A stretch of 53,617 nucleotides of DNA from the IMG/VR virus record IMGVR_UViG_3300024181_000006, positions 1 through 53,617 of that record. The stretch is one strand, 5' to 3'. Both the position numbers and the translations under genes were made by a program. The stretch is from a virus (taxonomy: Duplodnaviria > Caudoviricetes). Positions 2,813-53,596 of the stretch are shown here, in pieces (the stretch's first letter is position 1; the number at the start of each line of letters is the position of its first letter). The notes beneath the pieces were generated by a model, which worked only from the letters and a program-made list of their open reading frames with translations, was not told the DNA's origin and searched no databases.

Positions 2813-3109
2813 ATGAAAGACAAACCAACAGTAGCACCATTTCTAAATGAGAATGCGGATAGACAAGATATCCAAGTTCTAATCATGGCTAAATTCTTTG
2901 GATTTTCTTGGAAAACAATAGCCAAAGCAACAGGCAAGTCTGTATCGCAAGTTGGATATAGACTCAAGTGTGCTGGAATCAAGACTTCGGATTTCAGAAG
3001 AGGAGAAACAGCAATAGCAAATAGAGCAATAGAGTTCTGTCGTCAAGAATCGGCGGAATACTTCAACTCTATACAATCAGAGATACGCAAGTATCTGAAG
3101 GACCAATGA
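2813..3109 (+). CDS. HTH DNA-binding protein
   Basis: FSWKTIAKATGKSVSQVGYRL is a typical HTH pattern. Confidence 0.6.
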   Translation: MKDKPTVAPFLNENADRQDIQVLIMAKFFGFSWKTIAKATGKSVSQVGYRLKCAGIKTSDFRRGETAIANRAIEFCRQESAEYFNSIQSEIRKYLKDQ

Positions 3110-3712
3110 CATATCAAGAATTTCATACAAGACTAGGAGAGGTTCTAGAACATTATTCAGAACTTAAATCTCAAACAGCAGAAGTATGGGAGCCTCATTC
3201 ATGGGGTTCGCCAAATATAACTGAAGTTAAGGTAGAAATAGATGAAGAGCAAAAACCTAATTTATTTATTACAGTGGAGGAAAAATGAGCAACGAAGCAG
3301 AATCAATAGAATCCAGAGTGGAGAAGATTGAGAAGATACTTCTGGAACAATCTATATCAGGCATTCACACTTTCGAACTGATTAAAGCAATGCATACAAC
3401 AATTCAGAGTCAGCAGGAGATAATCAAGGTTCTGCATGAAGCTGATAATATTCTAAAAGAGTATATCGATAAGGTTGTTGGACATATCATCAAGACAGGA
3501 GGAAGGCTGGAATGAAAATCTTAATACATGATTCGGAAGGAACTCTACTATTGGAGAAGCATCTTGTCCAAGTAACCAGCATAATAATAGACCCAGAAGC
3601 ATGGTCTATGCAGATTACCGATGGATTAAATCTTAATACGGTAGTAGACTTAGAATCGGAGGATACTTTCGCTATTTCATTTCTCAATGATGAGAAGCTT
3701 GGCGGCAAATAG
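3106..3712 (+). other. Three small hypothetical genes (3106..3288, 3285..3515, 3512..3712)
   Basis: ORFs coupled by ATGA overlaps. Confidence 0.65.
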
Positions 3713-3724
3713 TTTGTATAAGGC

Positions 3725-3741
3725 TTGGCACACTTAATGCT
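3725..3741 (+). promoter_or_regulatory. sigma54 (-24/-12) promoter P1
   Basis: TTGGCACACTTAATGCT, GG-N10-GC spacing, intergenic, upstream of 3839. Confidence 0.8.
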
Positions 3742-3838: not shown

Positions 3839-4393
3839 ATGGCTGAACAAACAGCACAACACGCTAATCCAACATCACCAAAGAAACGTGAGAAGATTCC
3901 TTCTATCGAAGTCGATAGGAACGAAGTGAAACTGAAGTTCGTTGATACTGAAGTAATGAAAGGCAAATCAAAAGGTTGGCCTTATCTTGCTCCAGAGAAA
4001 ACTACTCCAGATTCTTTGGACACGCTAATTGGTTGGATGGGAAGAGATGTTGCGGCACAGAAACTTCATGCTTTCGTCAAAGGTCTATCACAGGGCTGGA
4101 TGGAGGAAGCTGAATCACAAGCAACTGGTGAAGATGGCAAAGTTGACAACACAAAGTTGCTGGAAGTATTCGGAACACTTGCCAAAGAATTCTCTGCTCG
4201 TGGAGAATCAATTCCGAAGTTGAAGGAAGAAATCGAAGAACTCACCAATCAGATGACTGGTTTGGATTTGGATTCTCCAGACTTCCAGAAAGATTTCAAG
4301 GCATTTGCCGAAGAAATCAAACGCTTGCAAGTTGCTATTCAGAGCAAGCGCCGCAAGTCAGACGAAGAAGAGAACGCTGCTGCAAATGGTTAA
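3839..4393 (+). CDS. Hypothetical protein (monocistronic, coiled-coil C-terminus)
   Basis: 184 aa; has its own promoter, A-rich leader and terminator. Confidence 0.8.
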   Translation: MAEQTAQHANPTSPKKREKIPSIEVDRNEVKLKFVDTEVMKGKSKGWPYLAPEKTTPDSLDTLIGWMGRDVAAQKLHAFVKGLSQGWMEEAESQATGEDGKVDNTKLLEVFGTLAKEFSARGESIPKLKEEIEELTNQMTGLDLDSPDFQKDFKAFAEEIKRLQVAIQSKRRKSDEEENAAANG

Positions 4394-4442: not shown

Positions 4443-4484
4443 ACTCCCGGTAGGTTGAAAGACTACTTACCGGGAGTTTTCTTT
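4443..4484 (+). terminator. Rho-independent terminator
   Basis: 13-bp stem ACTCCCGGTAGGT/ACTTACCGGGAGT followed by TTTCTTT. Confidence 0.85.
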
Positions 4485-4491
4485 CTCAAAC

Positions 4492-4521
4492 TTGACATGG
4501 TAATATAACCTAGTATAACAT
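4492..4521 (+). promoter_or_regulatory. Putative sigma70 promoter in tandem with P2
   Basis: TTGACA at 4492, then TATAAC (16-nt spacer) or TAACAT (18-nt spacer). Confidence 0.5.
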
Positions 4522-4525
4522 TAAC

Positions 4526-4542
4526 TTGGCACGATTCCTGCT
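4526..4542 (+). promoter_or_regulatory. sigma54 promoter P2
   Basis: TTGGCACGATTCCTGCT; heads the gene run containing the helicase and the bEBP. Confidence 0.88.
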
Positions 4543-5009: not shown

Positions 5010-5423
5010 ATGACAAGAACTAGCTTTGCTGCTCTGCTTCTAATTCTAGCTGGATGCTCTGCACCACAACCTAAACCAAAGATTGCAGGTCCTTCATCTA
5101 TTCCTGTAATGAAGTTTAGACCTCTACGTATAGCAGAAGCGGAAGTTTCTGTTAAACCTCCCAATCTTCCCAGATATCTACCACCCTTACGTTATCCTAC
5201 AAATGCTCCTGCTGCATTCTGGGTTCTACAATGGTCAGATGACTTAAAGCATTGGCATGTGCTGGCTAGATTCTATGGTAATTATCCTGATACGGCATTT
5301 GTGCCACCTAAGACTGGCAATAGATTCTTCAGGTATATCGGAACTCCACAGAAGCCTGCTTACGATGGCTTCATGACAAATAGACCAGATTTATGGCTTA
5401 AGTTAGGAGGAGATAAAGAATGA
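5010..5423 (+). CDS. Lipoprotein
   Basis: MTRTSFAALLLILAG-C lipobox (start re-called from 4983); LQWSDDLKHW...NRFFR motif. Confidence 0.7.
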   Translation: MTRTSFAALLLILAGCSAPQPKPKIAGPSSIPVMKFRPLRIAEAEVSVKPPNLPRYLPPLRYPTNAPAAFWVLQWSDDLKHWHVLARFYGNYPDTAFVPPKTGNRFFRYIGTPQKPAYDGFMTNRPDLWLKLGGDKE

Positions 5424-6355
5424 GTGACAAAAAGATTACCCTTCCATTATCAAGAGTATTGGAGTGGTTATGGGGATACAAAGATAGAGCGCCTGTAGAT
5501 GAGGCAGATGCACTTCTCATTGCTGCGATAGATAAGGATGAAGCTATCTGCCATATTCAGTATGAATCTCTTGAAGATGGCTCCATTCTAGATAATCCTC
5601 TAATCTGGAGAGTAAAGGAATGGCGCACATATCATTTGAAAATGATGCTTGATAAGGAAAAGCAAGCCAAGCAGCGCAAGGAATGGAATTTGCAGTCTGA
5701 GAATACCGAAATGCTTATGCGTGCATTAGCTAGGAAGTATGGCATCGAAGATAGAGAGATACTCAGAGGTATTGCTCATAAACTAGCAAGAAGTAAGAAT
5801 CAGGAATACGTTAACAAACTAGATGTTCCAGCAAAACTGGACATGGGAGATTAATATGAAAATCGCGCTAATGACATTCGAGGGTAAGCTACACAAGACT
5901 GTAGAATGGGATGGCAAAACAGAGCACAATGGAATGTATCTTAGGATTCCTAATGAACCTGAATGTGACCATTTCAGTGCTGTGCTTGCTATTAGACCTG
6001 AAGATGTAGATGAGTATACTACTCATTGTGCAGCATTAAATGACCAAATTATTAATCTGCAACATACACTCAATCAATATAAAGCCTCTGTGCATCACAG
6101 ATTGATACCATTCAAATCGTGAACATCATCTACAAAGTATCCTCTCCTCACGGTTATGCTTTTGTTGATACCTACGAGAATGCTTACAAATCTATGTTGG
6201 AAACATATCCTGAAGCAAATATTGGCATGATTCCTATAGAACAAAGAGATAAAACTATTAAAAGTTTTAATAGGATAGACAAAGGATGGTTCCTGATAGA
6301 AAAAATCGAAGTCAAAGATACACCACAAAGATTAATGCCATATACTAAGGTATGA
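5420..6355 (+). other. Hypothetical genes 5420..5854, 5823..6122, 6119..6355
   Basis: Overlapping or adjacent + strand ORFs. Confidence 0.6.
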
Positions 6356-9564: not shown

Positions 9565-10431
9565 ATGAGCAACGGAAACAAGAAAGATTCCCCACCAGCA
9601 CCTCCTGATATCATTGAGAAGATACAGGCATTTCTAGATAATAATCTGCCAGACCTTGCTCTAGCTCTGATAGAGAAGTTTGGATTGCAGATTGATATTC
9701 AGGATGGTAGAATTGTAGATAAGCTCAATAGCACAGAGTTCTGGCTTAAGAAGTTTATCACTATAGACAATCAAACTACAGCCATGAAGGATTCAATTCG
9801 CAAACTTGCGAAAGTTGATGATGAAGTTCTAATTACAGGTCCATCAGGTTCTGGCAAAGAACTAATTGCACATGCCTTAATGGGTAATCGTGAGGGAAGT
9901 TTTGTTCCAGTTAATTGTGCAGGATTGCCAGATACTCTAATTGATTCTCTGTTATTCGGACATAAGAAGGGTTCATTTACTGGCGCAGATACAGATAAAG
10001 CTGGATTCTGTGTAGCGGCAAGAGACGGAATTCTATTCCTTGATGAAATTGGTGAATTGCCAATCACTTTACAAGCTAAGCTTCTAAGAGCTATTCAGGA
10101 GAAGAAGATTTTACCCATAGGTGATACAAAAGAAAGAGAGATATCCTGTAGATTTGTATTCGCAACTCATAGGAATCTCCAGCAGATGATTGCTGAGTCA
10201 CAATTTAGGATAGATTTATTTGCTAGGATATCTACATTTGAAATAGCTATTAAAGGATTGAAGGATAGGAAATGTGATATCATTCCAATCATAGAATCTC
10301 TGGATGGTGGACATGCGTATATCAATTATATGCAATCAAGAGGAAAGATTAATCCAGAAACTATTGATGTTAATTTAGGCGTGCGTTCTCTTCAACAATT
10401 GGTAAGGAGACATAAAGTCTTGCATACATGA
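9565..10431 (+). CDS. sigma54-dependent transcriptional activator (bEBP AAA+), lacking receiver and HTH domains
   Basis: VLITGPSGSGKELIA, FVPVNCA, LFGHKKGSFTGA (GAFTGA loop), LFLDEIGEL, LQAKLLR, ATHRNL, FRIDLFARI; the protein ends just after the lid helix (GVRSL). Confidence 0.95.
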   Translation: MSNGNKKDSPPAPPDIIEKIQAFLDNNLPDLALALIEKFGLQIDIQDGRIVDKLNSTEFWLKKFITIDNQTTAMKDSIRKLAKVDDEVLITGPSGSGKELIAHALMGNREGSFVPVNCAGLPDTLIDSLLFGHKKGSFTGADTDKAGFCVAARDGILFLDEIGELPITLQAKLLRAIQEKKILPIGDTKEREISCRFVFATHRNLQQMIAESQFRIDLFARISTFEIAIKGLKDRKCDIIPIIESLDGGHAYINYMQSRGKINPETIDVNLGVRSLQQLVRRHKVLHT

Positions 10432-10625
10432 GAATTAAATTTGAACCTAACTATTTCTTTATAGGACTTCATGTAATATGTAAGGAACAAACTATGACAA
10501 TGTGGTATGTAATCGTAGATAGAACATATCATCTTTGCATAATTCCGTTCTTTCCTATTGTATGGGAGAAGTCTAAGTTGATTTCTCGACATTGAGATGT
10601 TATATAAAGTTATATCAAATCTATT

Positions 10626-10642
10626 TTGGCACGATTCTTGCT
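10626..10642 (+). promoter_or_regulatory. sigma54 promoter P3
   Basis: TTGGCACGATTCTTGCT, near-perfect consensus; heads the GroES/recombination/replication run. Confidence 0.92.
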
Positions 10643-11537: not shown

Positions 11538-11915
11538 ATGTCAACTGAACTAAGCAAAATAACCACGCTACTCAAAGATGTTGTAATCCTCAAACTTCAC
11601 AAGAGGCCAACTGGAACTATATCTGGACTAGTTCTTCCAGAAGCACACAGAGTTCCTATCGAACTGATTCCAGGTGAAGTTATAATGATTGGTTCCAAGT
11701 TCAGATTCAAAAATGAAGTAGATTTAGGAGATATACTTTGGGTGCCTTCACAGTTTGGGAATGCTGTGAATCAATTTGATGAATCCATAAGGTTCTATGA
11801 TGGGGAAGATTGTCACGCTATAATGAAGAAAAAGGATTATGTTCAACAACAGCATCATGTAGCTGCTGCAATCGTTGAAAAGCATCCAATGTCGGAGTAT
11901 CAAAAAGATGAGTAA
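11538..11915 (+). CDS. groES: GroES/Cpn10-like co-chaperonin
   Basis: LLKDVVIL..TISGLVLP..GEVIMIG..VDLGDIL..EDCHAIM matches the Cpn10 pattern. Confidence 0.75.
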   Translation: MSTELSKITTLLKDVVILKLHKRPTGTISGLVLPEAHRVPIELIPGEVIMIGSKFRFKNEVDLGDILWVPSQFGNAVNQFDESIRFYDGEDCHAIMKKKDYVQQQHHVAAAIVEKHPMSEYQKDE

Positions 11916-12540
11916 CACTGTAGATAGACCAGCAACTTGGTCACGAAGAGCTAACGCACCTTATTATAGGGAACGTTATGCTCTAGAGGTAAAGCACGTT
12001 CTAGATGAAATGATTCTAGCAGCAGAATCAGGGGATAGAGAGCCACGTATACTCAAGTATACTGATTATCCAGAGATATCTCATGTCACTCTCTATCTCA
12101 AAATTAATCAAGCTATGATGTATCTTCTGGATAAGCTTGATACAGATGAAAAGACCTACTTCAATTTCCGGCAACTCATAAACATCTCTCGCTTAAGGTC
12201 TATCGGTATCAAAATTGGATTTGCCCACGGAGTCGATAATAAATCCTTGGCAGCATACAAGGTATCTTCCACTGATATTCCTCAAGAGAAGCCTAAAGAG
12301 GTAAAACTTCCAGAGTCTAAACCTTTAGTTCAAACTGATTGGAAAGAACAGTTAGCTAACTTCGTAGAGATAGCTCAAGTCGGGCAATCCCTTAAGCTAA
12401 CTGGATTACAGCTTACAATGGTAGATGGTGAATATATCAGGGACCATATTCCTGATGATAAGTGCATCATTTACGAAGCCAAGACTGATTCTTTAATGTG
12501 TATTAAGTTAACACCTGAAGAATACGCAAAGACGAAATGA
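11875..12540 (+). CDS. Hypothetical protein
   Basis: ~210-221 aa ORF in operon; the true start is probably the MSNTVD ATG overlapping the groES end. Confidence 0.7.
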   Translation: MKSIQCRSIKKMSNTVDRPATWSRRANAPYYRERYALEVKHVLDEMILAAESGDREPRILKYTDYPEISHVTLYLKINQAMMYLLDKLDTDEKTYFNFRQLINISRLRSIGIKIGFAHGVDNKSLAAYKVSSTDIPQEKPKEVKLPESKPLVQTDWKEQLANFVEIAQVGQSLKLTGLQLTMVDGEYIRDHIPDDKCIIYEAKTDSLMCIKLTPEEYAKTK

Positions 12541-12791
12541 CTCTACTACAGGCTATCAATGGCAAATCAGCAAAAGAACTTGCAGAGTTGGATGAGAAAC
12601 AGTTGCTTGAACACTTTGCTCCTTTACTTAATGTTACACGACCTGAACTTGCCCCTAAGCCAGAGAAATCTACGTATAGGTCGAAAGGTTCTTCTCTCTC
12701 CAAAGTTGAGGAATCCCTTAAGGATGCTAAGAAACGAATGGCGGAGAGACTTGCTCAACAAATGGGGATAGATTTAAAGTTCGATGATTAA
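12537..12791 (+). CDS. Hypothetical protein
   Basis: ATGA-coupled 84 aa ORF. Confidence 0.65.
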   Translation: MTLLQAINGKSAKELAELDEKQLLEHFAPLLNVTRPELAPKPEKSTYRSKGSSLSKVEESLKDAKKRMAERLAQQMGIDLKFDD

Positions 12792-16153: not shown

Positions 16154-17698
16154 ATGAACTTCCGAGCTAAACCTAAATTAAGTTATTGTGGATTGACACT
16201 AGTCCTACGCAATCCATCTAGATTTGACTTAAAGCAGGGCAGACTTTTATCTGCCAACGGCGGAAACTATCTTAATGAATGTCTAGCTCCAGACTTTAAT
16301 ATTCATCAGTGCGATATTAGAGTTAAGGAAGATAGAGAGAATCTTTTACCTGGAACTAAGGCAGTTCTACTTCTAGGCGAGGAAGCTGCACAAGTATGGC
16401 TCAACAATAAGGAGAACACACTCAATGAAATTCGTGGCTCTGTTTATCGCATCAATGAGATACCACATATCTCTTCATTCTTTCCGCAAGATGCCGTCGA
16501 TATCAAAGACTACGAGTCTACACATAATGAAGAGTATGAACGGGAAGAAGATGAAGATGATAAGGCACCTATAGATGAGAAGCGCAGGCATGGTAAAACT
16601 CGACGTAAGAACTACAGATTCTGGTTGCAAAGAGATGTTCAAAAATGTAAGTTAATTCTCAAAGATAAGATTTCTCCTAATCCTATTCCTGACCCAGAAT
16701 ATGTAATTTATCCATCTTCGGATTTAGTAATAAGCACGCTATCAAATACGGAGAACAAACTAATGTTCTTCGACATAGAAACTGATGAGCGTCTTAATAT
16801 TCTGTGTTTTAGCTATTCCTTCGGTGATAGGAATATATATTGCGTCCCTACCCTTGACCATAATTGGAAGTGGGCCTATCATAATCTTCATCATATTTAT
16901 AGAGCCTTGGCTAGAGCAGTTGAAAGAAACACGGTTGTTGCACACAATGGTGCAAACTTCGATTTCTACGTCCTTGGAAAGAAATACAAAATTGCAATCA
17001 GAGATGTTAAAGATACAATGCTCCAGCAACATAGATGTTTCCCAGAGGCAGAGAGAAGTCTTGGGCATTGCACATCTTTGTGGACCTTTGAACCATTCCA
17101 TAAGGATGAAGGAGATGGTGGATACTACTCATCAGAACAAGTTAGAGATAAATTAAGGTATTGTGGGAAAGATGTTTACACAATGATGCTTATCTATTAT
17201 GCACAACTTGAACATGCTCGCAGAAATCCGGGACTTCGAGAATCTTTCGACCAAGTCAATGCAGCAATACGTCCTTATCTTACTACTTGTCTTACTGGTA
17301 TTCATTATGACCAGCAGAAGGTCAAAGAAATAATGGCTGAGAATGATGGTTTGATGATGCAGTATATCAGAATTATAAATTGGTTTGTTGGCGAGAAAAC
17401 AATCTCAGAATTGAGAAAACGATTCAAGAGTTCATTACCAGGAAGTAATCCTCAATGCTGCATCTACTTTCATGAGAAGCTTGGATATCCAGTTGTAGGT
17501 AGAGGTAAAGAGAAGAAAGATGGCTCCAGAAATCCATCACTAGCAAAAAAGAATTTATTTAAGCTAAAGCTTAAGCACGATAATCCTGTTATTGACCTGA
17601 TTATTGCTTATCGTGAAACTCAAAAAGAATCAGGGGCACTTAAATTCAATCCATTACATGCTGATGAAGTTGACAATCCAATACAACAAGAGAAATGA
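16154..17698 (+). CDS. DNA polymerase A, N-terminal part (UDG-like domain + 3'-5' exonuclease + thumb)
   Basis: AVLLLGEEA..RGSVY..FFPQ (UDG-like); FFDIET, AHNGANFD, YCGKDV (ExoI-III); GIHYD, SNPQ, HDNPVIDLIIAYR. Confidence 0.85.
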   Translation: MNFRAKPKLSYCGLTLVLRNPSRFDLKQGRLLSANGGNYLNECLAPDFNIHQCDIRVKEDRENLLPGTKAVLLLGEEAAQVWLNNKENTLNEIRGSVYRINEIPHISSFFPQDAVDIKDYESTHNEEYEREEDEDDKAPIDEKRRHGKTRRKNYRFWLQRDVQKCKLILKDKISPNPIPDPEYVIYPSSDLVISTLSNTENKLMFFDIETDERLNILCFSYSFGDRNIYCVPTLDHNWKWAYHNLHHIYRALARAVERNTVVAHNGANFDFYVLGKKYKIAIRDVKDTMLQQHRCFPEAERSLGHCTSLWTFEPFHKDEGDGGYYSSEQVRDKLRYCGKDVYTMMLIYYAQLEHARRNPGLRESFDQVNAAIRPYLTTCLTGIHYDQQKVKEIMAENDGLMMQYIRIINWFVGEKTISELRKRFKSSLPGSNPQCCIYFHEKLGYPVVGRGKEKKDGSRNPSLAKKNLFKLKLKHDNPVIDLIIAYRETQKESGALKFNPLHADEVDNPIQQEK

Positions 17699-19377: not shown

Positions 19378-20508
19378 ATGGGAATTAACACAACAATGTA
19401 TCATCAGGAGGGCACGAATACATATCGTCGCTCCTCTAAGGCAATAGTAGAAGGGTTTGGCGATTATCTATTTAAGATAGGGACCAATCTTCAGAACATT
19501 GAGAAAGAGCTTAGAAGAATCTACCATGCCAAAGGATACAAAGCTGCATTGCATTTCGAGAAATGTTTACACTATCTCAAGACGAATCAATATGACCACT
19601 TCACAGCAGAAGAACTCGCTATTATCCGTATTTTTAATCAAGTTGACCAAAGTGGTGCGGAAGCTCTTATTGTTGCCTATCTGTGTGAGCATGGTAAATT
19701 TAGAGATTTGTTCCTCAATGGTGTTAAGCCTCATGTCTTTGTTGCTTTGCATCTATTTTCTGCTGTATGGCAGGATGAACTTAATAAGATATCAAGTGGA
19801 GACTTTAAGATTGACATTAAGGATTTCTTGGATAGTCCGATACCAGACTTGCAGAAGCATTCTTACTGGAAGGCCCTCGACAAGATTATCAAATCTAGCG
19901 ATAACTGGGAAGGTGGAAGAAGATACTACTACATAGGAAAGAAGGTGTGTCATGCCGGAAATTATGGGATGCGTGGAAATACATTTCAGCTTGCAGTTCT
20001 TGAAGAATCAAGAGGACAAATTGCTCTTACCAAACGGCAAGCAGATGAATATATCGGATTTTATCACACACTATTTCCAGAAATTTCCGAATGGCACAGA
20101 GATGTTATTCGACAACTTGAGGCAACTAGAACTCTCTATAACTTGTTCGGATACCCAAAATACTTCGGACAAGAAATCAGAGATGGAATGTTCAACGAAG
20201 CTTATAGCTTTGTGCCTCAATCAACTGTCGCCTGCATTACTGCAAAAGCTTTCTGTAAGTTGCAAGATTTCATAGAAGGCACAAATAGGGATTGGGATAT
20301 ATTAGCAGATACTCATGATTCATATATGAATCAAACACCCATTCCCGAATCTATAGAATCACTTAAGATAATGAAGGATTTTATAGAACAAGATTTAGTA
20401 TCTCCTCGTGGAGAAAAGTTTAAGATGAAGTCTGAGGGCCAACATGGATTTCTATGGTGTCCTGCTAAAGAGAAGTATCCAGAGGGAATGACTGAAGTTA
20501 AACTATAA
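19378..20508 (+). CDS. DNA polymerase A, C-terminal catalytic part
   Basis: GTNTYRRSS..NLQNI; motif A DQSGAE; motif B KKVCHAGNYG; PQSTVA; motif C THDS. Confidence 0.92.
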   Translation: MGINTTMYHQEGTNTYRRSSKAIVEGFGDYLFKIGTNLQNIEKELRRIYHAKGYKAALHFEKCLHYLKTNQYDHFTAEELAIIRIFNQVDQSGAEALIVAYLCEHGKFRDLFLNGVKPHVFVALHLFSAVWQDELNKISSGDFKIDIKDFLDSPIPDLQKHSYWKALDKIIKSSDNWEGGRRYYYIGKKVCHAGNYGMRGNTFQLAVLEESRGQIALTKRQADEYIGFYHTLFPEISEWHRDVIRQLEATRTLYNLFGYPKYFGQEIRDGMFNEAYSFVPQSTVACITAKAFCKLQDFIEGTNRDWDILADTHDSYMNQTPIPESIESLKIMKDFIEQDLVSPRGEKFKMKSEGQHGFLWCPAKEKYPEGMTEVKL

Positions 20509-21943: not shown

Positions 21944-22452
21944 TCTAATACCATTCCTAATTGGTGCAGGAGTTTGTGGATTTATATTCATTGCTCATGA
22001 ATATAATAAACCTGCATTCCTATCCAAATGGCAAGTTATAGGTGGATATTCGACAGAGCATCCTACTATGATGGGAGTTTCTGTTAGACCTTTATTACCA
22101 AATGAAGGTGCCACTTCTAGAGTATTCTACATAGAAACTAATGCTGTAATCATCCTCGAAATAACAGACGAAGGTAAACAGTTCTCCTACAAATACCAAA
22201 TATTAACCAACGCACTACATGACTAAAATCAAAACAAAAGACCTCATTATTCCCATATTCACGGGCACTATTGGAATTGGAATAGCCGAAACATTCTTCT
22301 ATCTTCTAACTAGAGATAAAGATAGAGACACCTTTGTAGCAACTAATGAGATAATAGCTCTCATTGTAGGCATAATTATCATCTTTCTCAGTCTTGCGCT
22401 ATTTATGGCTATGGTTGATGATATCAATGAACAAAAGAAAAAGAAGAAATGA
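21921..22452 (+). other. Two small membrane proteins (21921..22226, 22219..22452)
   Basis: One and two hydrophobic helices respectively. Confidence 0.6.
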
Positions 22453-22631
22453 ATCCTCACAAGGATACTAACGGAAAGAAGAATGCTTGGGCAATACGGA
22501 GTTACATTGAAGTAGCACGTATCCTAAAGATATCTCCTCAGGCAGTTTGGGAAACTGAGAAGAGAGCTTTTGAGAAAATCAGAACAGCACTTCTTACAGG
22601 GATGGTATCATCCCAGACTTTGCATGATTGA
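22449..22631 (+). CDS. Sigma region-4-like HTH protein
   Basis: RSYIEVARILKISPQAVWETEKRAFEKIR. Confidence 0.7.
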   Translation: MNPHKDTNGKKNAWAIRSYIEVARILKISPQAVWETEKRAFEKIRTALLTGMVSSQTLHD

Positions 22632-41377: not shown

Positions 41378-42676
41378 TTATTGACCCCTCTTCCGTTTGA
41401 AGTAGATGGGAATACCATAGCGAGGTTGCTTCGCAAGGTTGCCATAGGTGCATTGCGAGATGAACTTCAGATATTCACCATACTGGTTAGTTTCCCAGAA
41501 TAGATTACCTGCATCATCATAGCAAGGGATAAGGAAGTTCTTAGTGATTTCTACTTCACCATTCCAGAACATCTTACCGAAACCTTTAGGCATCCCATTT
41601 CCTGCAAATGCGGCAGGAGGAGGACCAACTTGAATCTGCTCATAACCTTCAGCACCCATAAAGAATGCCATTTCGTAAGGAGAACCATTGGCAGCATCCA
41701 ATAAGGTATAGAGAGGATTAGGAATAGATTCGCCAGCATTGTAAGCTGCTGGATTGAGTTCCCTTACTTCAGGAGCAGGGAAAGTTCCATCGGCTCGCAT
41801 CCTTAAGGGTTTATCCTCAAGAATACAAGTTAGGCGGCCAAACAATGAACCCTTGAATCGTCCATTAACTACATCAAGAGCGCAATTCTTGTTAGCTAAT
41901 AGCCAGGGGTCAAATGTGAACTGGTTGAATGCTTCACCAGAGGTAACAACAACATACTTATCAGACATGCCATCTTCACCTTTAGGAAGTCCGCTTCCTG
42001 AAAATGGAGGAATACGCTGATCAGTTTCAGCAGCCGTCAGAAGTTTGTTCAGGGATTCAAATGAAAGATATCCCCGACCACCAATGTTAGCTACAGTTGC
42101 TTGATTGAATGCTGTAGTCTTACCGTCTGTTCCAGCAGAATTACCAACACCTATTGGAGCAGCTTGAAGTTCGTTGTTCTGATTGTTTGTGGCATCAGTA
42201 ACCCAAACAAACGGTGAGCGATGGAATATACGTCCACGAGTGAAGATATCCTCAAATCGTTCCATCTTCTCCATAATATCCTTACCACATGCATCAACAT
42301 GGTCAGTAAGGAAGTCACGAAATGAGGGAACAAAGTTAAGAACATTTGATTCAAACCTGTGACGGTAAACCAGTTCATCAACTTTACGTTCGCGAACATC
42401 CATCACATCTTTCTTTGGTGCCGCTGAAATTTCAGCAGGGAAAGCAAACTGACGAATGTGCGGTGAAGGTTCCTTTGTAACACTTCTCATGGTAGGACCC
42501 ATATTAGGTGTCCATTTCTTCTTACCAAGAAAACGTGCCCAAGTAACCCATGTCTTACGACGGTCAACTTGCATCTTAGCTAGATAGAAATCTAACCTAT
42601 TATACAAGTTTACGTCTTGTTCAGTCCAGCCTGAGCAAATATTCGCATCTACGGCCGGAATTTGTGCTAATGGCAT
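41378..42676 (-). CDS. Major capsid protein
   Basis: 432 aa downstream of portal and scaffold; dedicated promoter and downstream terminator. Confidence 0.8.
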
Positions 42677-42800
42677 AAGTTTTGTAACAAAACAGTTATA
42701 AGGTAGAATTAACGATACCTCAGCGTTTGTTCTAGGCCCAGAAGAACTAAAAAAGAAGCCTGTAACCGTGCCCTAACGGTCGTAGAAGCAGGTTACAGGT

Positions 42801-42817
42801 AGCAGGTTTCGTGCCAA
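42801..42817 (-). promoter_or_regulatory. sigma54 promoter P4 (capsid)
   Basis: TTGGCACGAAACCTGCT on the - strand, 125 bp upstream of the MCP start. Confidence 0.9.
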
Positions 42818-42823
42818 GTTATC

Positions 42824-43432
42824 TCAAGGTTGAGATAGCTCAGTTCTCGGTAATGAGATATGCTTATTATGAAGTAAATGTCTAAGAACTTTACCAGTAG
42901 TTCTGGTATCGTATAGAGCATCATGCGCATCTGTCATCTTTAATCCAAGAAGTATCTCAGCAGCTTCCTCTAATTTAGGCCATTTAGGTCTATTAGAGCC
43001 TTGCTGCTTAAGACCACATATCTTAGTGGATGCTAGCATAGTGCAGATTCCCGAAGTGCCGTTCTCAATGTTGTATAATGGCCTACCTGTTATCATCACC
43101 TCTGTAGCAAGCAGATATGAATCAAACTTAAGTCCGTGAGCTACAACATAATCTGCAAGTTTTGAGAATTCATCGAAGATAGTTAGAGCAGATTCTATAG
43201 GTATACCATACTTCTGACACTTCTCTAATGATATACCATGCCTCGACTCAGCATTAGGAGACATGTTAACTCCTGGTGGAAGTTTAATTAAGGAGCAAAA
43301 TGCAGCAACTTCATCAAACTCTGGGGTTAGAAGAGTGCAAGCTAATTGCACAATTCTAGCTTTAGACATTCCCGGATTAGGTGCTCCCCAATCAGGTAAG
43401 TCTGTAGTTTCCGTATCAAATACAAGAAACAT
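42824..43432 (-). CDS. DEDDh 3'-5' exonuclease (DnaQ-like)
   Basis: FDTETT, AHGLKFD, ICTM, WPKLEE, AHDALYD. Confidence 0.92.
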   Translation of the reverse strand: MFLVFDTETTDLPDWGAPNPGMSKARIVQLACTLLTPEFDEVAAFCSLIKLPPGVNMSPNAESRHGISLEKCQKYGIPIESALTIFDEFSKLADYVVAHGLKFDSYLLATEVMITGRPLYNIENGTSGICTMLASTKICGLKQQGSNRPKWPKLEEAAEILLGLKMTDAHDALYDTRTTGKVLRHLLHNKHISLPRTELSQP

Positions 43433-45088: not shown

Positions 45089-47101
45089 TTATTGTTGAGG
45101 AACTGGCTGACTTTGCTGCTGTTGAGGAGAACTTCCAGGAGAAGGAACACCAGATAATTGTCCAGCTTGCATAATCATCTGCTGTAACTGTTGCTTCTCA
45201 TCTGGATTGATTGTCTGAAGAATGTCTGGATGCTGTTGAAGTATTGCACCAGTGATGTGAGCTAATCCACCAAGCAATCCTTTCATCTGCTGTATCTGGT
45301 CCATCTGCCCAAGTATCTCAGCATATTGTTCACCAGTATCAGGATACTCAAGTTTCATTAAATCCTGAAGGAATCTGGTAGCAAGAGGAGTATTTTGAAT
45401 TACAGGCCAATCTTGCTTCATCTGCTGAATCTTCTCAGCACGTTGAACAACATCAACATCTCCTGCCGCTCTTAGTTCCCAAGTTTGAGATATAGTGTCT
45501 ATATCATTAACAAACTGAGGATTATCCTGACCAGGAGGCATCTGAGGATTGAACTGAGGATTAGGAATCAATAGAAACTTAATCTCTCCCTGCAAAGCTT
45601 GACTTTGCACAATAAGCCAAGCAAAAGAGTAAACTTCTCGAATATGTGTGCTATACAGAGTTAGCTGAACACTATTCAATATCTGTTGTTGACTCTGTGC
45701 AGCAGATATTTCTGTAGCTGTTTTGCGGGAATCTTGACGATTCATTGTCGCAAAGTTGACTTGATTGGTTTCCTCCGAATTGGCGGAATCCATGTATTCA
45801 AGTGCTTTGATAGTTTCAGGTGGAGGATAAGGAGGACTCCAGAACTGGATAGGTTTAGACATATACCTACCACCACGAATAACTAAATCCTCATACTCCT
45901 TTAGAGATGAACCTGTTCCATCCTCTTGAGCAGGACTAGCATAAATATTTGAAGAACGAGTAAGACCATTAATGTAGCCAGAAAGAATGGCCGTTTGAGA
46001 TTCTTGTTTGGGTTCATCATAGAAACATCTTCCCTTCTTATCTACCTCTTTAGGCTCCTCAGATTCACGATATGGAAGTAGAAATAGAGGATACTCAAGT
46101 AGAGGTGACTCTTCCCATTGCTCCTGCATTTGAGTAATAGGTGGCTGAGGTATCATTGCAATACCAGCAGGAGTTTGCATTGGCATATCAGGTTGAGGAA
46201 CCTGCACAGGCACCTGAACTTTATGTTTGATACCAACATAATGTTTCTCAGGCTGCTTAAGCCAGTCATCTACTTGGTCTGTAGTTGCAAACCATGAAAC
46301 ATATACTATACCCTCTTTCTTAAAGAATAGTTTATAGATACGAACAGTTTCATTCTCTTTCTGTGTATCTTTTCTGGAAGCAAGAAGTTTATTAACTTGT
46401 GCCTCATCAAATCCGAAATTTCTAACCCACTCACGAAGTTTGGTAATAGTTACATCATATGCACGAATGATTCGCGGCGCATCTCTTAAATTCTCGACTG
46501 TTCTGCCCCAAAACAGTTTATCATGTGCGACATACTCTAACCCAACATTTAAGGGTTTGGAAGAATCGAACACAACTTCAAGAGCAGCCCATCCATGTGC
46601 AGCAGAACCATCAATCTCTTTGAAGTGTGACTTCTCCCATGCAGTGTAAGTCATTCCTCTAGCAAAATCTGATTCAATTGCTTGAGGATCTTTCCCTGGA
46701 ACAGTTAAACAAAAGAATGTTGCTATCCTTCTTGAATTCTTAAGATAGTTGACATAAGCTGGAAGTTCCCTCTGTATATTAGTGTCAATAGTCCTTACAG
46801 GAACAATGGTTTCATCCTCATCCAAATCACCCTTCTGACGCAAACCTTCAACATCTAACTCAACTTTCCTTGTTTTGCGGCGCACTTCTGTATCTTCGAC
46901 TTCTGTATTCCAATCATCGATGATACGCTTAAGATGCACATATGCTTCAGACCAAGCATAAAGCTTCTCTTGTTCTGTATCAGAACCTGGAGGTGGCTCA
47001 GGTTTACCTGTTAGGGAATTTGGTAAATCCTGTAATCCAGCAGAAGTATTAATACTTCCAGGCTGTTGATGTTCACCTGGCCCGATATATTCTGGGTTCA
47101 T
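45089..47101 (-). CDS. Portal protein
   Basis: 670 aa downstream of TerL; KTATEI motif; Q/P-rich C-terminus. Confidence 0.8.
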   Translation of the reverse strand: MNPEYIGPGEHQQPGSINTSAGLQDLPNSLTGKPEPPPGSDTEQEKLYAWSEAYVHLKRIIDDWNTEVEDTEVRRKTRKVELDVEGLRQKGDLDEDETIVPVRTIDTNIQRELPAYVNYLKNSRRIATFFCLTVPGKDPQAIESDFARGMTYTAWEKSHFKEIDGSAAHGWAALEVVFDSSKPLNVGLEYVAHDKLFWGRTVENLRDAPRIIRAYDVTITKLREWVRNFGFDEAQVNKLLASRKDTQKENETVRIYKLFFKKEGIVYVSWFATTDQVDDWLKQPEKHYVGIKHKVQVPVQVPQPDMPMQTPAGIAMIPQPPITQMQEQWEESPLLEYPLFLLPYRESEEPKEVDKKGRCFYDEPKQESQTAILSGYINGLTRSSNIYASPAQEDGTGSSLKEYEDLVIRGGRYMSKPIQFWSPPYPPPETIKALEYMDSANSEETNQVNFATMNRQDSRKTATEISAAQSQQQILNSVQLTLYSTHIREVYSFAWLIVQSQALQGEIKFLLIPNPQFNPQMPPGQDNPQFVNDIDTISQTWELRAAGDVDVVQRAEKIQQMKQDWPVIQNTPLATRFLQDLMKLEYPDTGEQYAEILGQMDQIQQMKGLLGGLAHITGAILQQHPDILQTINPDEKQQLQQMIMQAGQLSGVPSPGSSPQQQQSQPVPQQ

Positions 47102-49846: not shown

Positions 49847-50290
49847 TCATTTACCATTAACAAGCTCCTTCACTTCAGCAGGAATCTCTATTACCTGCTC
49901 TTTAGAACGTTGCTTGGCTGCTATAGCTTTACGCATTTGCTCGTTAAATGATATGACGTTAATGTTAAGACCGCTTAGCTGCTTACCGATATCAAGTCTA
50001 CCTCGGCGGTCATTTCTAAGAAACATTGCTGCACGAAGCTGAGTTCTTTCATCAGCATCAGTATAGCCTCTGGCGATATTCGATATAACATCGACTACAG
50101 CCTGTTCTTGTTCATCAGTGAACCCTATCTCTTTAGGTGCTTTACCAGCAGCTTGTCTAAAGAGTGTAGAGAACTGCATTAGAATGGCCTTAACTGAGGT
50201 CAATTCTAACTCTTGGTCATCCGCAATTTCTTCCGGTGACATACCTAGTTCTTCATAGGCAGTTATGATTTGTTGGTCAGCTCCGCTCAT
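49847..50290 (-). CDS. Putative terminase small subunit
   Basis: N-terminal HTH (GMSPEEIA), helical, directly upstream of TerL. Confidence 0.55.
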   Translation of the reverse strand: MSGADQQIITAYEELGMSPEEIADDQELELTSVKAILMQFSTLFRQAAGKAPKEIGFTDEQEQAVVDVISNIARGYTDADERTQLRAAMFLRNDRRGRLDIGKQLSGLNINVISFNEQMRKAIAAKQRSKEQVIEIPAEVKELVNGK

Positions 50291-50871: not shown

Positions 50872-50888
50872 AGCAAGAGTCATGCCAA
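50872..50888 (-). promoter_or_regulatory. sigma54 promoter P5 (late/packaging operon)
   Basis: TTGGCATGACTCTTGCT on the - strand, at the head of the whole virion arm. Confidence 0.88.
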
Positions 50889-51174
50889 GGTTCTCAGAGT
50901 TGCAATACAGTATAAGTAAGAAGTCATGCCCACCTAAAGCAAGGTTGAGATACAGTGCATCTCAAGGATGAGAGTTATATTAGAAATATTTGAGTTAGGG
51001 ACAATTATAGAGAAAATTCTACGAGTAAGTCAGGGGCCCCATGTCAACTAATTTCGGGGTGCCTACTGGCTTAATTTGCTCAGACTGGACCATACCAATG
51101 CTCAATAATCGCCACTAACTTAGTGATGACTACAACATATAGTGTTACATAGAACTAAACGATACCACTAATAG

Positions 51175-51191
51175 TTGGCATAGGACTAGCT
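51175..51191 (+). promoter_or_regulatory. sigma54 promoter P6
   Basis: TTGGCATAGGACTAGCT, divergent from P5. Confidence 0.7.
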
Positions 51192-52731: not shown

Positions 52732-52748
52732 ATGGCACGCTTTATGCC
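52732..52748 (+). promoter_or_regulatory. sigma54 promoter-like site P7
   Basis: ATGGCACGCTTTATGCC, GG-N10-GC. Confidence 0.6.
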
Positions 52749-52780
52749 TAAAGTGATATAAACCAGTATACGTGTCGTTA

Positions 52781-52878
52781 TATATATAACCTTATATAAC
52801 ATAGGGCCTTCTTAAAATGTTTGAAATGAAAAAAAGTTGTTTTTGTGGCCTCACGAGAGTTATATAAGGTTATATATA
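52781..52878. repeat. Perfect 20-bp inverted repeat (origin/operator candidate)
   Basis: TATATATAACCTTATATAAC (52781-52800) / GTTATATAAGGTTATATATA (52859-52878). Confidence 0.85.
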
Positions 52879-53012: not shown

Positions 53013-53051
53013 TTCTCATTCTTGCGAACTCAAACATTCTCATTCTTGCGA
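53013..53051. repeat. 15-bp direct repeat x2
   Basis: TTCTCATTCTTGCGA at 53013 and 53037, just upstream of P8. Confidence 0.8.
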
Positions 53052-53078: not shown

Positions 53079-53095
53079 TTGGCACAAATTATGCT
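53079..53095 (+). promoter_or_regulatory. sigma54 promoter P8 (early small-gene cluster)
   Basis: TTGGCACAAATTATGCT. Confidence 0.8.
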
Positions 53096-53266
53096 ACCTA
53101 GCATCAGTCAAAGTTCTACAAAAACATGCTATATAGTTATATCCTGGTTAGCTTCAAATCGCACCCTTGCGAGATGCCTTACGTGACCTTTAACATGACT
53201 TACCAGTATACTCACTTGCATATTTTGATATAACTTGTGACATAAACGTTATACTATAGTTATATT

Positions 53267-53596
53267 ATGCCACACATTGAAATCACTAAAACACTCCTTA
53301 TAACTCCCGTTCGATATAAAATCAAGAAGTTCTCTGATTATAAACCAGGACTTGCAATCTTCATCATTAATAAAACGGAAGATAACTGCATTGATTACTG
53401 GAAAACGCCATACATCATAATTCCCCTCTCTACGGATTTTGAAGAATTAGATTCCCTATTTACAACACACAAATTAGGAGCAATATACTATCCTAACGAT
53501 ATATATTCCATCCAAATAGAAGATGAAAGAATGTCTCCACGGTTCTCTATTGATATAACTGAAATGATGAATATCGCCAAATCTAATGAGCACTGA
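53267..53596 (+). CDS. Hypothetical early protein
   Basis: 109 aa, first ORF of the early cluster. Confidence 0.65.
   Translation: MPHIEITKTLLITPVRYKIKKFSDYKPGLAIFIINKTEDNCIDYWKTPYIIIPLSTDFEELDSLFTTHKLGAIYYPNDIYSIQIEDERMSPRFSIDITEMMNIAKSNEH

Follow-up and report, generated by a model that had tools for sequence, protein, structure and literature searches.

What does a bacteriophage do with a sigma54 activator that has neither a receiver domain nor a C-terminal helix-turn-helix (HTH)? The question is raised by an open reading frame (ORF) at positions 9565–10431 (plus strand, 288 amino acids, with the boundaries first given for it) in a DNA stretch of 53,617 nucleotides, in the following called the window. 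[quoted passage not shown] The initial annotation saw in it the master activator of eight phage promoters. The window is a complete phage of approximately 53.5 kb, the ends of the genome overlapping by approximately 120 bases (CheckV 98%).

The Activator Protein

All sequence and structure tests that could be run place the protein in the bEBP family, with an architecture like that of FleT. The Pfam model Sigma54_activat covers residues 67–227 (E = 8.2e-55; 185.5 bits versus a curated cut-off of 20.2), and Response_reg, HTH_8, GAF and PAS are all absent at E ≤ 1, the outcome that the initial annotation had expected for Sigma54_activat, Response_reg and HTH_8. The closest solved sequences are the central domains of FleQ, NtrC1, NtrC4 and PspF. 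In an AF2 model built from a 119-row alignment (pLDDT 94.4), residues 59–288 superpose on residues 142–377 of FleQ (6jdi) with Z 27.4 and rmsd 1.8 over 225 aligned residues; against FleQ, NtrC1 and PspF together the values are Z 25–27 and rmsd 1.8–2.0 over approximately 214–225 residues, and the fold is that of an AAA+ domain with an alpha-helical lid and a pre-sensor I insertion. Since the superposition on FleQ reaches residue 288, the chain ends with the lid, approximately 14 residues past R274, and the earlier description of a protein that stops right after the lid without a Fis-type HTH holds. By anatomy it is FleT-like, an activator domain alone; the NCBIfam model for FlgR scores it with 156 bits versus a cut-off of 750. 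A complex prediction with residues 1–60 of E. coli RpoN and three copies of the activator gave a score of 0.00, which is evidence neither way. All 56 phage copies compared terminate 14–39 residues from the sensor II region, and a loss of the HTH by frameshift is ruled out because all of them stop at the lid.

The N-terminal domain (residues 15–63; 9607–9753, plus strand) is predicted to fold as helix-helix-hairpin-helix, is near-neutral in charge and is family-specific. It had been described as an extension of approximately 60 residues; the length is right, and the term is too modest for a segment that is predicted to be folded and is conserved in part of the activator family, five members having just 11–18 residues ahead of the AAA domain. 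A fold search with the model of this domain (pLDDT 66) yielded no clear match (best Z 3.4 among 48,161 chains), the leads from the Atlas were all below threshold, and the likeness to an HTH was low (Prob 0.2%). Its profile found 29 matches among 1.84 billion proteins, the strong ones being family-sized proteins or fragments thereof.

Catalytic Residues and the Predicted Sigma54 Contact Loop

The motifs reported at first sight are all present in the translated ORF (plus strand): Walker A GPSGSGKE (residues 92–99; 9838–9861), the L1 loop GSFTGA predicted to contact region I of sigma54 (residues 136–141; 9970–9987), in which Thr139 is invariant, Walker B ILFLDE (residues 156–161; 10030–10047) and the arginine-finger region R215–R221 (FRIDLFAR; 10207–10227). 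To these can be added the switch asparagine (Asn117), the sensor II arginine R274 (10384–10386) and, beyond it, R282. K98, E99, N117, T139, D160, E161, R215, R221, R274 and R282 are invariant among 119 homologues of 45–75% identity. In the 56 phage copies K98, E99, N117, T139, D160, E161, R221 and R274 are found in 100%, as is Phe or Tyr at position 138, R215 in 95% and R282 in 86%.

There are also departures from the textbook protein. The equivalents of the PspF switch residues E81, E97 and R131 are missing and are replaced by K134, V150 and P184, where K134 and V150 are what we take to be the counterparts of E81 and E97 in PspF numbering. The second Glu of ESELFG, which is Glu in 77% of the phage and 89% of the cellular copies, is Leu in the window protein. 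In PspF the exchange R131A is described as abolishing ATPase activity (PMC2745333). Pro is found at the R131 position in 41% of the cellular controls, however, and since the PspF switch positions vary in cellular activators, too, the E81/E97/R131 switch is not family-defining. Ser at the second position of the loop occurs in 33% of the cellular controls and, according to the relevant part of PMC3162934, in LevR, which is a functional activator. As judged from these sequences, GSFTGA is within the functional range of L1 loops. The bEBP homologues that act with sigma70 (TyrR, DhaR and VpsR) are described in the same source as having a broken or deleted GAFTGA loop, a feature absent from the phage activator, whose loop is intact.

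These residues bear on whether the protein could be a dominant-negative decoy or trap, which binds RpoN or poisons the rings of host bEBPs and so turns off sigma54 responses of the host, while activators of the host or other factors drive the phage promoters. The altered PspF-type L1/L2 switch and ESELFG motif of the window protein would fit such a role; the Walker B Glu, both arginines and sensor II are nevertheless kept across the family, and a decoy could do without the invariant residues for catalysis and sigma54 contact. In addition, a block of RpoN would silence the phage's own −24/−12 sites ahead of the capsid and packaging genes (see below). We consider a decoy very unlikely; the conservation of the hydrolysis machinery over the divergence of the family speaks for an enzyme that is active.

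A Core Gene of an Uncultured Phage Group

Among the matches listed in the protein search there were 120 activator clusters, 119 of them with 271–324 residues and one, P0102, with 396; their longest contigs were often of 48–58 kb. In all of the 119 members that form alignment A1, from which P0102 was omitted, Sigma54_activat was matched, and in none of them HTH_8 or Response_reg. P0102 is a singleton on a 1.3-kb contig with an N-terminal extension of approximately 105 residues that matches HTH_7 weakly (E = 0.001, below the cut-off); the extension is possibly a fusion or the result of a mis-called start.

Scans of IMG/VR yielded 81 loci (one scan giving the best 80 of 283), four of them without a complete ORF; dereplication at 80% identity and removal of the cellular-type loci L008 and L075 and of the window locus left 55 phage loci. 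In these, which derive from the best 80 of 283, a helicase gene lies upstream of the activator gene in 53 and an exonuclease gene downstream in 52. In a quick maximum likelihood tree of the AAA core with a midpoint root, a branch with an SH-aLRT of 96 separates 56 phage proteins from 80 cellular-type rows; FleT was not among the rows, and no donor is inferred. Cellular proteins that combine a receiver with an AAA domain and have a short C-terminus (L094, L116, L135 and L143) group with the cellular rows and not with the phage branch. Contamination with host DNA, or a fragment of a cellular gene, is ruled out by the core synteny together with the phage-only branch. Host genes were not found in the parts of G039 and G033 examined, nor were phage neighbours at the 79 scorable of 80 genome loci.

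The association was also approached from another gene. The putative capsid gene is common to 46 of 49 records searched and to all 40 of those that are at least 90% complete. Because alignments of the exonuclease and of all capsids were too divergent for scanning, three capsid sub-alignments were used, and of the 19 longest new records found with them 15 encode the activator, as do all 13 complete ones. It should be noted that this test was not fully blind, since 6 of the 13 complete genomes belong to one close lineage and the capsid alignments were derived from activator-bearing phages. GenBank (50,697 phage records) contained no match covering 80% of the activator, the annotated matches being host-type regulators, and no match to the putative capsid. 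The activator matches PHROG 7998 (unknown function) with E = 4e-38; the members of this group are related domains. The activator is thus a core gene of a widespread uncultured phage group.

The Genome Around the Activator Gene

The left arm of the genome carries genes for a helicase, an exonuclease, a Sak4-like protein, DNA polymerase and primase (PHROG matches), and the right arm, on the opposite strand, that for the large terminase (profile matches to PDB terminases with E = 1e-4; phrog_2). The names portal, scaffold and major capsid are putative, given from size, position and conservation: the capsid (41378–42676) and portal (45089–47101) genes, both on the minus strand, find no support from PHROG, NCBIfam or PDB, and as these proteins are without database match the phage group seems to be without a cultured member. 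Neither sigma70 region 2 (Sigma70_r2) nor a sigma54 gene (Sigma54_DBD) was found in the genome by searches in which the controls were detected. A search for a T7-type RNA polymerase gave no match, the control likewise remaining undetected, and an ORF of 1870 residues had no match in PDB or NCBIfam.

Some further genes may be mentioned here. Three small ORFs (2813–3109, 22449–22631 and 49847–50290, the last at the small-terminase position) show weak matches, below the cut-off, to HTHs of the sigma70 region 4 type. The family A DNA polymerase is split into two ORFs (16154–17698 and 19378–20508, plus strand), both matching phrog_17 and separated by approximately 1.7 kb of small genes; in the relatives L049, L058, L060, L062, L072, L073 and L079 it is a single ORF. 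In 7 of 19 relatives a gene for a DnaQ-like exonuclease (in the window 42824–43432, minus strand) is located between the positions of scaffold and capsid. The core genes 3839–4393, 5420–5854 and 12537–12791 (plus strand), whose function is unassigned, occur in 18–19 of 19 genomes, the first being the first gene behind a conserved sigma54 site. Just downstream of the activator gene lies another core ORF (11875–12540, plus strand; 18 of 19 genomes) with a basic arm and a helix S-x-x-TLY-x-x-INQ that resembles an HTH recognition helix (Prob 4.8%); PDB, PHROG, Pfam and the Atlas give it no support.

Sigma54-Type Promoter Sites in the Window and in Relatives

In the window TGGCAC-N5-TTGC is matched with at most one mismatch 10 times versus 2.26 expected, a number that none of 100 shuffles reached, and 7 of the 11 sites scoring at least 10/12 fall in non-coding DNA, which makes up 8.9% of the window and in which they are oriented toward downstream genes. 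Sigma70-type sites are not enriched (52 versus 55 expected and, in a second test, 23 versus 35). On the plus strand, a 12/12 site after the activator gene (10627–10642) heads the block for exonuclease, Sak4, DNA polymerase and primase; a 10/12 site (3726–3741) precedes core gene 3839–4393 and heads a gene run whose last members are the helicase and the activator; and an 11/12 site (4527–4542) lies in the same run and overlaps a sigma70-like site (4492–4521). Two sites with 10/12 are found at 52733–52748, in a long non-coding region, and at 53080–53095, before ORF 53267–53596, which crosses the circular junction and leads on into the leftmost genes. On the minus strand, 11/12 sites are found 140 bp ahead of the putative gene for the major capsid protein (42801–42816) and at the head of the packaging operon (50872–50887), the terminase of which is confirmed by profile. 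Divergent from the latter is a weaker plus-strand site with 9/12 (51176–51191) that has counterparts in G001 and G002. The eight promoters first counted are therefore real as sequence: seven score at least 10/12 in non-coding DNA and the eighth, at 51176, 9/12.

The survey of viral genomes that had been called for shows that the activator co-occurs with correctly oriented −24/−12 sites at four gene positions in dozens of divergent genomes. In 39 of the 55 dereplicated phage loci (from the best 80 of 283) a co-oriented site of at least 10/12 is found within 300 bp after the activator stop codon; the reverse strand has such a site in 0 of 55 loci, and the values behind other ORFs and behind cellular activators are 39 of 1004 and 12 of 78; sites of at least 11/12 number 82 in the phage loci versus 5 expected. 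Of the 30 best capsid loci 29 contain a complete putative capsid gene, and 28 of these genes are preceded by a site at a distance of at most 400 bp (1 on the reverse strand, 0 downstream), the sole miss showing a 9/12 site at the same place. The gene at the small-terminase position is preceded by a site in 16 of 18 genomes (1-kb window; the 4 on the reverse strand are the divergent promoter), gene 3839 in 16 of 19 and gene 5420 in 3 of 19; before the helicase, activator, scaffold and portal positions there was none in 18–19 genomes. As read from these sequences, −24/−12 sites stand at four conserved places, namely behind the activator gene, before the capsid gene, before the packaging genes and at the head of the activator's own operon.

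The strength of the sites varies. The exact 12-base motif is present in 39 of 43 records (2 control matches in total) and in only 6 of the 13 complete genomes found via the capsid. In the capsid-found set the capsid site scores at least 10/12 at 23 of 32 loci and 9/12 at the remaining nine, eight of which belong to one lineage. In the distant lineage G057–G064 the capsid site has just 9/12, and no site of at least 9/12 lies within 700 bp after the activator.

A different main role would be to reprogram the genes that the host controls through sigma54 (metabolism, surface, motility), with phage sites that are incidental or served by host activators. Activators consisting of an AAA domain alone are promiscuous, and cellular activator genes, too, are often near a site (the 12 of 78 mentioned above), as one would expect if this were so. 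The phage activator, however, does not behave as a mobile auxiliary gene: it is fixed between helicase and exonuclease, it forms a single phage-only branch, and it is essential operons of the phage to which the sites are linked. This makes a primary role in host reprogramming very unlikely.

The Upstream Palindrome and Other Repeated Elements

The initial annotation pointed to HTH-less bEBPs that activate without enhancers. A lack of any enhancer-like input cannot be taken for granted in the window lineage, since a palindrome lies at a fixed position upstream of five promoters. The palindrome, TCTCA-N4-TGAGA, is present with at most one mismatch in 15 copies versus 4.2 expected in the window, five of which are centered 35–37 bp before a −24/−12 site, at approximately −62 from the start; others are at 13, 59 and 80 bp. 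Before the 3726 site there is an exact copy (3682–3695, center 37 bp) and before the 10627 site one with one mismatch (10584–10597, center 36 bp). Another with one mismatch precedes the 4527 site (4484–4497, center 36 bp) and overlaps the TTGACA of the sigma70-like site. Two copies each are found before the capsid-promoter site (42822–42858, centers 13 and 36 bp) and the 53080 site (53014–53051, centers 59 and 35 bp), and a further exact copy is centered 80 bp before the 50887 site (50960–50973).

When each genome was searched blind and by itself, TCTCA-N4-TGAGA emerged at 5 of 7 promoters scored in the window, a result equalled by none of 60 shuffles, and at 4 of 8 in G002, and a different palindrome at 3 of 7 promoters in G007; in the remaining 19 of 22 genomes there was no significant shared palindrome. 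Isolated copies at the same spacing occur in G001 and G010. A scan of the collection for the palindrome together with TGGCAY used too loose a pattern and gave single scattered matches. No gene was found to track with the palindrome; candidates for a binding protein, including 11875–12540 and 5420–5854, are unsupported, the latter having neither HTH nor database support. A second DNA-binding factor probably modulates the palindrome-bearing promoters of the window lineage. Since the element is limited to this lineage and the activator and promoters are family-wide, we read the palindrome as a modulator (a repressor, a timing switch or a helper) rather than as a required enhancer.

A second kind of repeat, TATAAC/GTTATA, often recurs at 10–11 bp (4500–4525, 10599–10615, 52777–52875 and 53136–53266) and is also seen in relatives. 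Many early and middle promoters have phased TATAAC repeats directly upstream, compared with only 1 of 31 capsid promoters; the enrichment is overstated, because the background included coding DNA. The repeats, which are dense in the long non-coding region, are possibly protein-binding sites or an origin.

It is from these elements that the alternative of a true activator that is gated or tethered must be judged, in which a separate DNA-binding protein of the phage or the host, or the activator's own N-terminal domain, would bind an operator near −62 and recruit or license the ring in the manner of a split bEBP. The fixed distance in the window, the palindromes of G002 and G007, the isolated copies in G001 and G010, the phased TATAAC repeats and the weak HTH_7 match of P0102 are all consistent with it. 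There is also a cellular analogy: Borrelia Rrp2 is described as not binding an enhancer, whereas BosR binds beside the −24/−12 site and both are needed (PMC3037356). A factor bound to the palindrome may be required in a BosR-like way, the analogy extending to the −62 palindrome alone; no binding protein was found in the window phage. Against gating, a significant shared palindrome exists in just 3 of 22 genomes, with the activator and promoters being family-wide; the N-terminal domain is almost absent from five members and, where present, near-neutral and without likeness to an HTH; the extension of P0102 is a singleton; and no gene tracks the palindrome. Moreover, one palindrome sits on a sigma70 −35 box and two lie 12–13 bp from the −24 element, positions which a repressor or switch fits at least equally well. 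Gating or tethering appears to us rather doubtful.

The 5′ leader of the capsid gene (42677–42800, minus strand; L169–L198 in the relatives) contains repeats of another type, in which GCTTCT stands before a short hairpin whose loop is GGGC or GAGC. Of 27 capsid leaders 19 have one such unit or more and 11 have two, with none on the reverse strand; Rfam has no match for the leader. The unit could be a translational operator bound by a protein or a nut-like antitermination site. An inverted repeat with a T-run (42750–42800, minus strand), whose conservation is not clear, overlaps the melting region of the capsid promoter. It could stop read-through from upstream, and transcripts starting at the sigma54 promoter would miss its 5′ arm.

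Proposed Mode of Action

Taken together, the activator very likely activates the phage −24/−12 promoters, be it largely free of enhancers or in a gated or tethered form. Its assignment as master activator of these promoters gains support from the survey, from the invariant residues and from the lack of a gene for sigma70 region 2 or sigma54 in the genome. In its most specific form our reading is that the protein is probably a constitutive master activator of middle and late genes, which opens promoters from solution.

The activator would first be expressed at a low level from a sigma70-type promoter, for which 4492–4521 is a weak candidate, or by read-through. The AAA+ ring would then assemble without a signal, and the GSFTGA loop would contact closed complexes of host RpoN-RNA polymerase from solution, which would be opened by ATP hydrolysis. 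Via the 3726 and 4527 promoters the activator would feed back positively on its own operon, and firing would then extend to the replication block, to the genes for packaging and to those for head and tail, presumably in this order. Selectivity for phage DNA would come from the near-consensus promoters and the increasing number of genome copies, and lineage-specific upstream operators would tune the timing. As a side effect host sigma54 promoters would probably be fired, too, since AAA-only activators are promiscuous.

As a wider picture, which we put forward tentatively, a whole uncultured phage family could run its middle and late program on host sigma54 by means of a self-encoded and self-amplifying activator; in the window lineage a separate protein at the −62 operator would provide in trans the DNA-binding module that the activator lacks, so that the two would form a natural split enhancer-binding system.

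Comparison With Known Systems

With the bEBPs (PF00158; FleQ, NtrC1, PspF and ZraR) the phage activator shares the AAA+ fold with lid, Walker A and B, the switch Asn, a GAFTGA-type loop, arginine fingers and sensor II; it differs from them in having no sensory domain and no Fis-type HTH, in its small novel N-terminal domain and in forming a branch of its own. [quoted passage not shown] Of the precedents originally invoked, all are without HTH, but FlgR and CtcC retain a receiver and are controlled by phosphorylation, and only FleT is described as lacking both domains (PMC3162934, PMC7175178, in the parts dealing with these proteins). FlgR, CtcC and FleT are all chromosomal, whereas the activator is encoded by a phage. 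The engineered AAA-only activator DctD250 is reported to be constitutive, promiscuous and independent of enhancers and to yield approximately 10-fold less transcription than enhancer-bound NtrC (PMC3844500); a solution-acting activator may therefore be weak. DctD250 is a laboratory truncation, of which the phage protein is the natural, conserved equivalent.

Among phages, YuA of Pseudomonas is reported to use one sigma54-like promoter (bioRxiv 10.1101/2023.10.13.562163), compared with a genome-wide program in the window phage. Neither the YuA record nor any Pseudomonas was among the matches listed in a tblastn search with the activator (best 60 of 65), which suggests that YuA itself has no detectable activator. 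A sigma54 activator encoded by a phage was not found described in the full-text literature searched (PMC12316311 included); supplements and most subscription papers lay outside this literature, so that an annotation table may mention one.

What is new is the use of a bEBP-family protein as a core regulator of a phage, and this borders on a new phage transcription strategy. It would add to the ways of phage takeover one in which the host sigma54 polymerase is powered by a phage ATPase. Since sigma54 promoters remain locked in the absence of an activator, a single gene for 288 residues could provide a tight, self-amplifying off/on switch. The activator is a family-level hallmark of a widespread uncultured phage group without GenBank isolate, and the hosts of activator-bearing phages are predicted to have rpoN. 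More than 100 natural minimal activators become available for testing how bEBPs function without enhancer or sensor, a question that also concerns FlgR, CtcC and FleT, and the compact activator-promoter parts may be of use in synthetic biology.

The known routes of phage takeover include the RNA polymerase of T7, gp55 and AsiA-MotA of T4, the sigma factors of SPO1, Ogr of P2, C of Mu and Q of lambda. As in these phages, a phage protein would redirect transcription to middle and late promoters. The switch proposed here would be neither a polymerase nor a sigma factor, a sigma70 co-activator or an antiterminator but a protein that uses ATP to remodel the sigma54 closed complex of the host, and its role would be the one played in T7 by the phage polymerase and in T4 by a late sigma factor.
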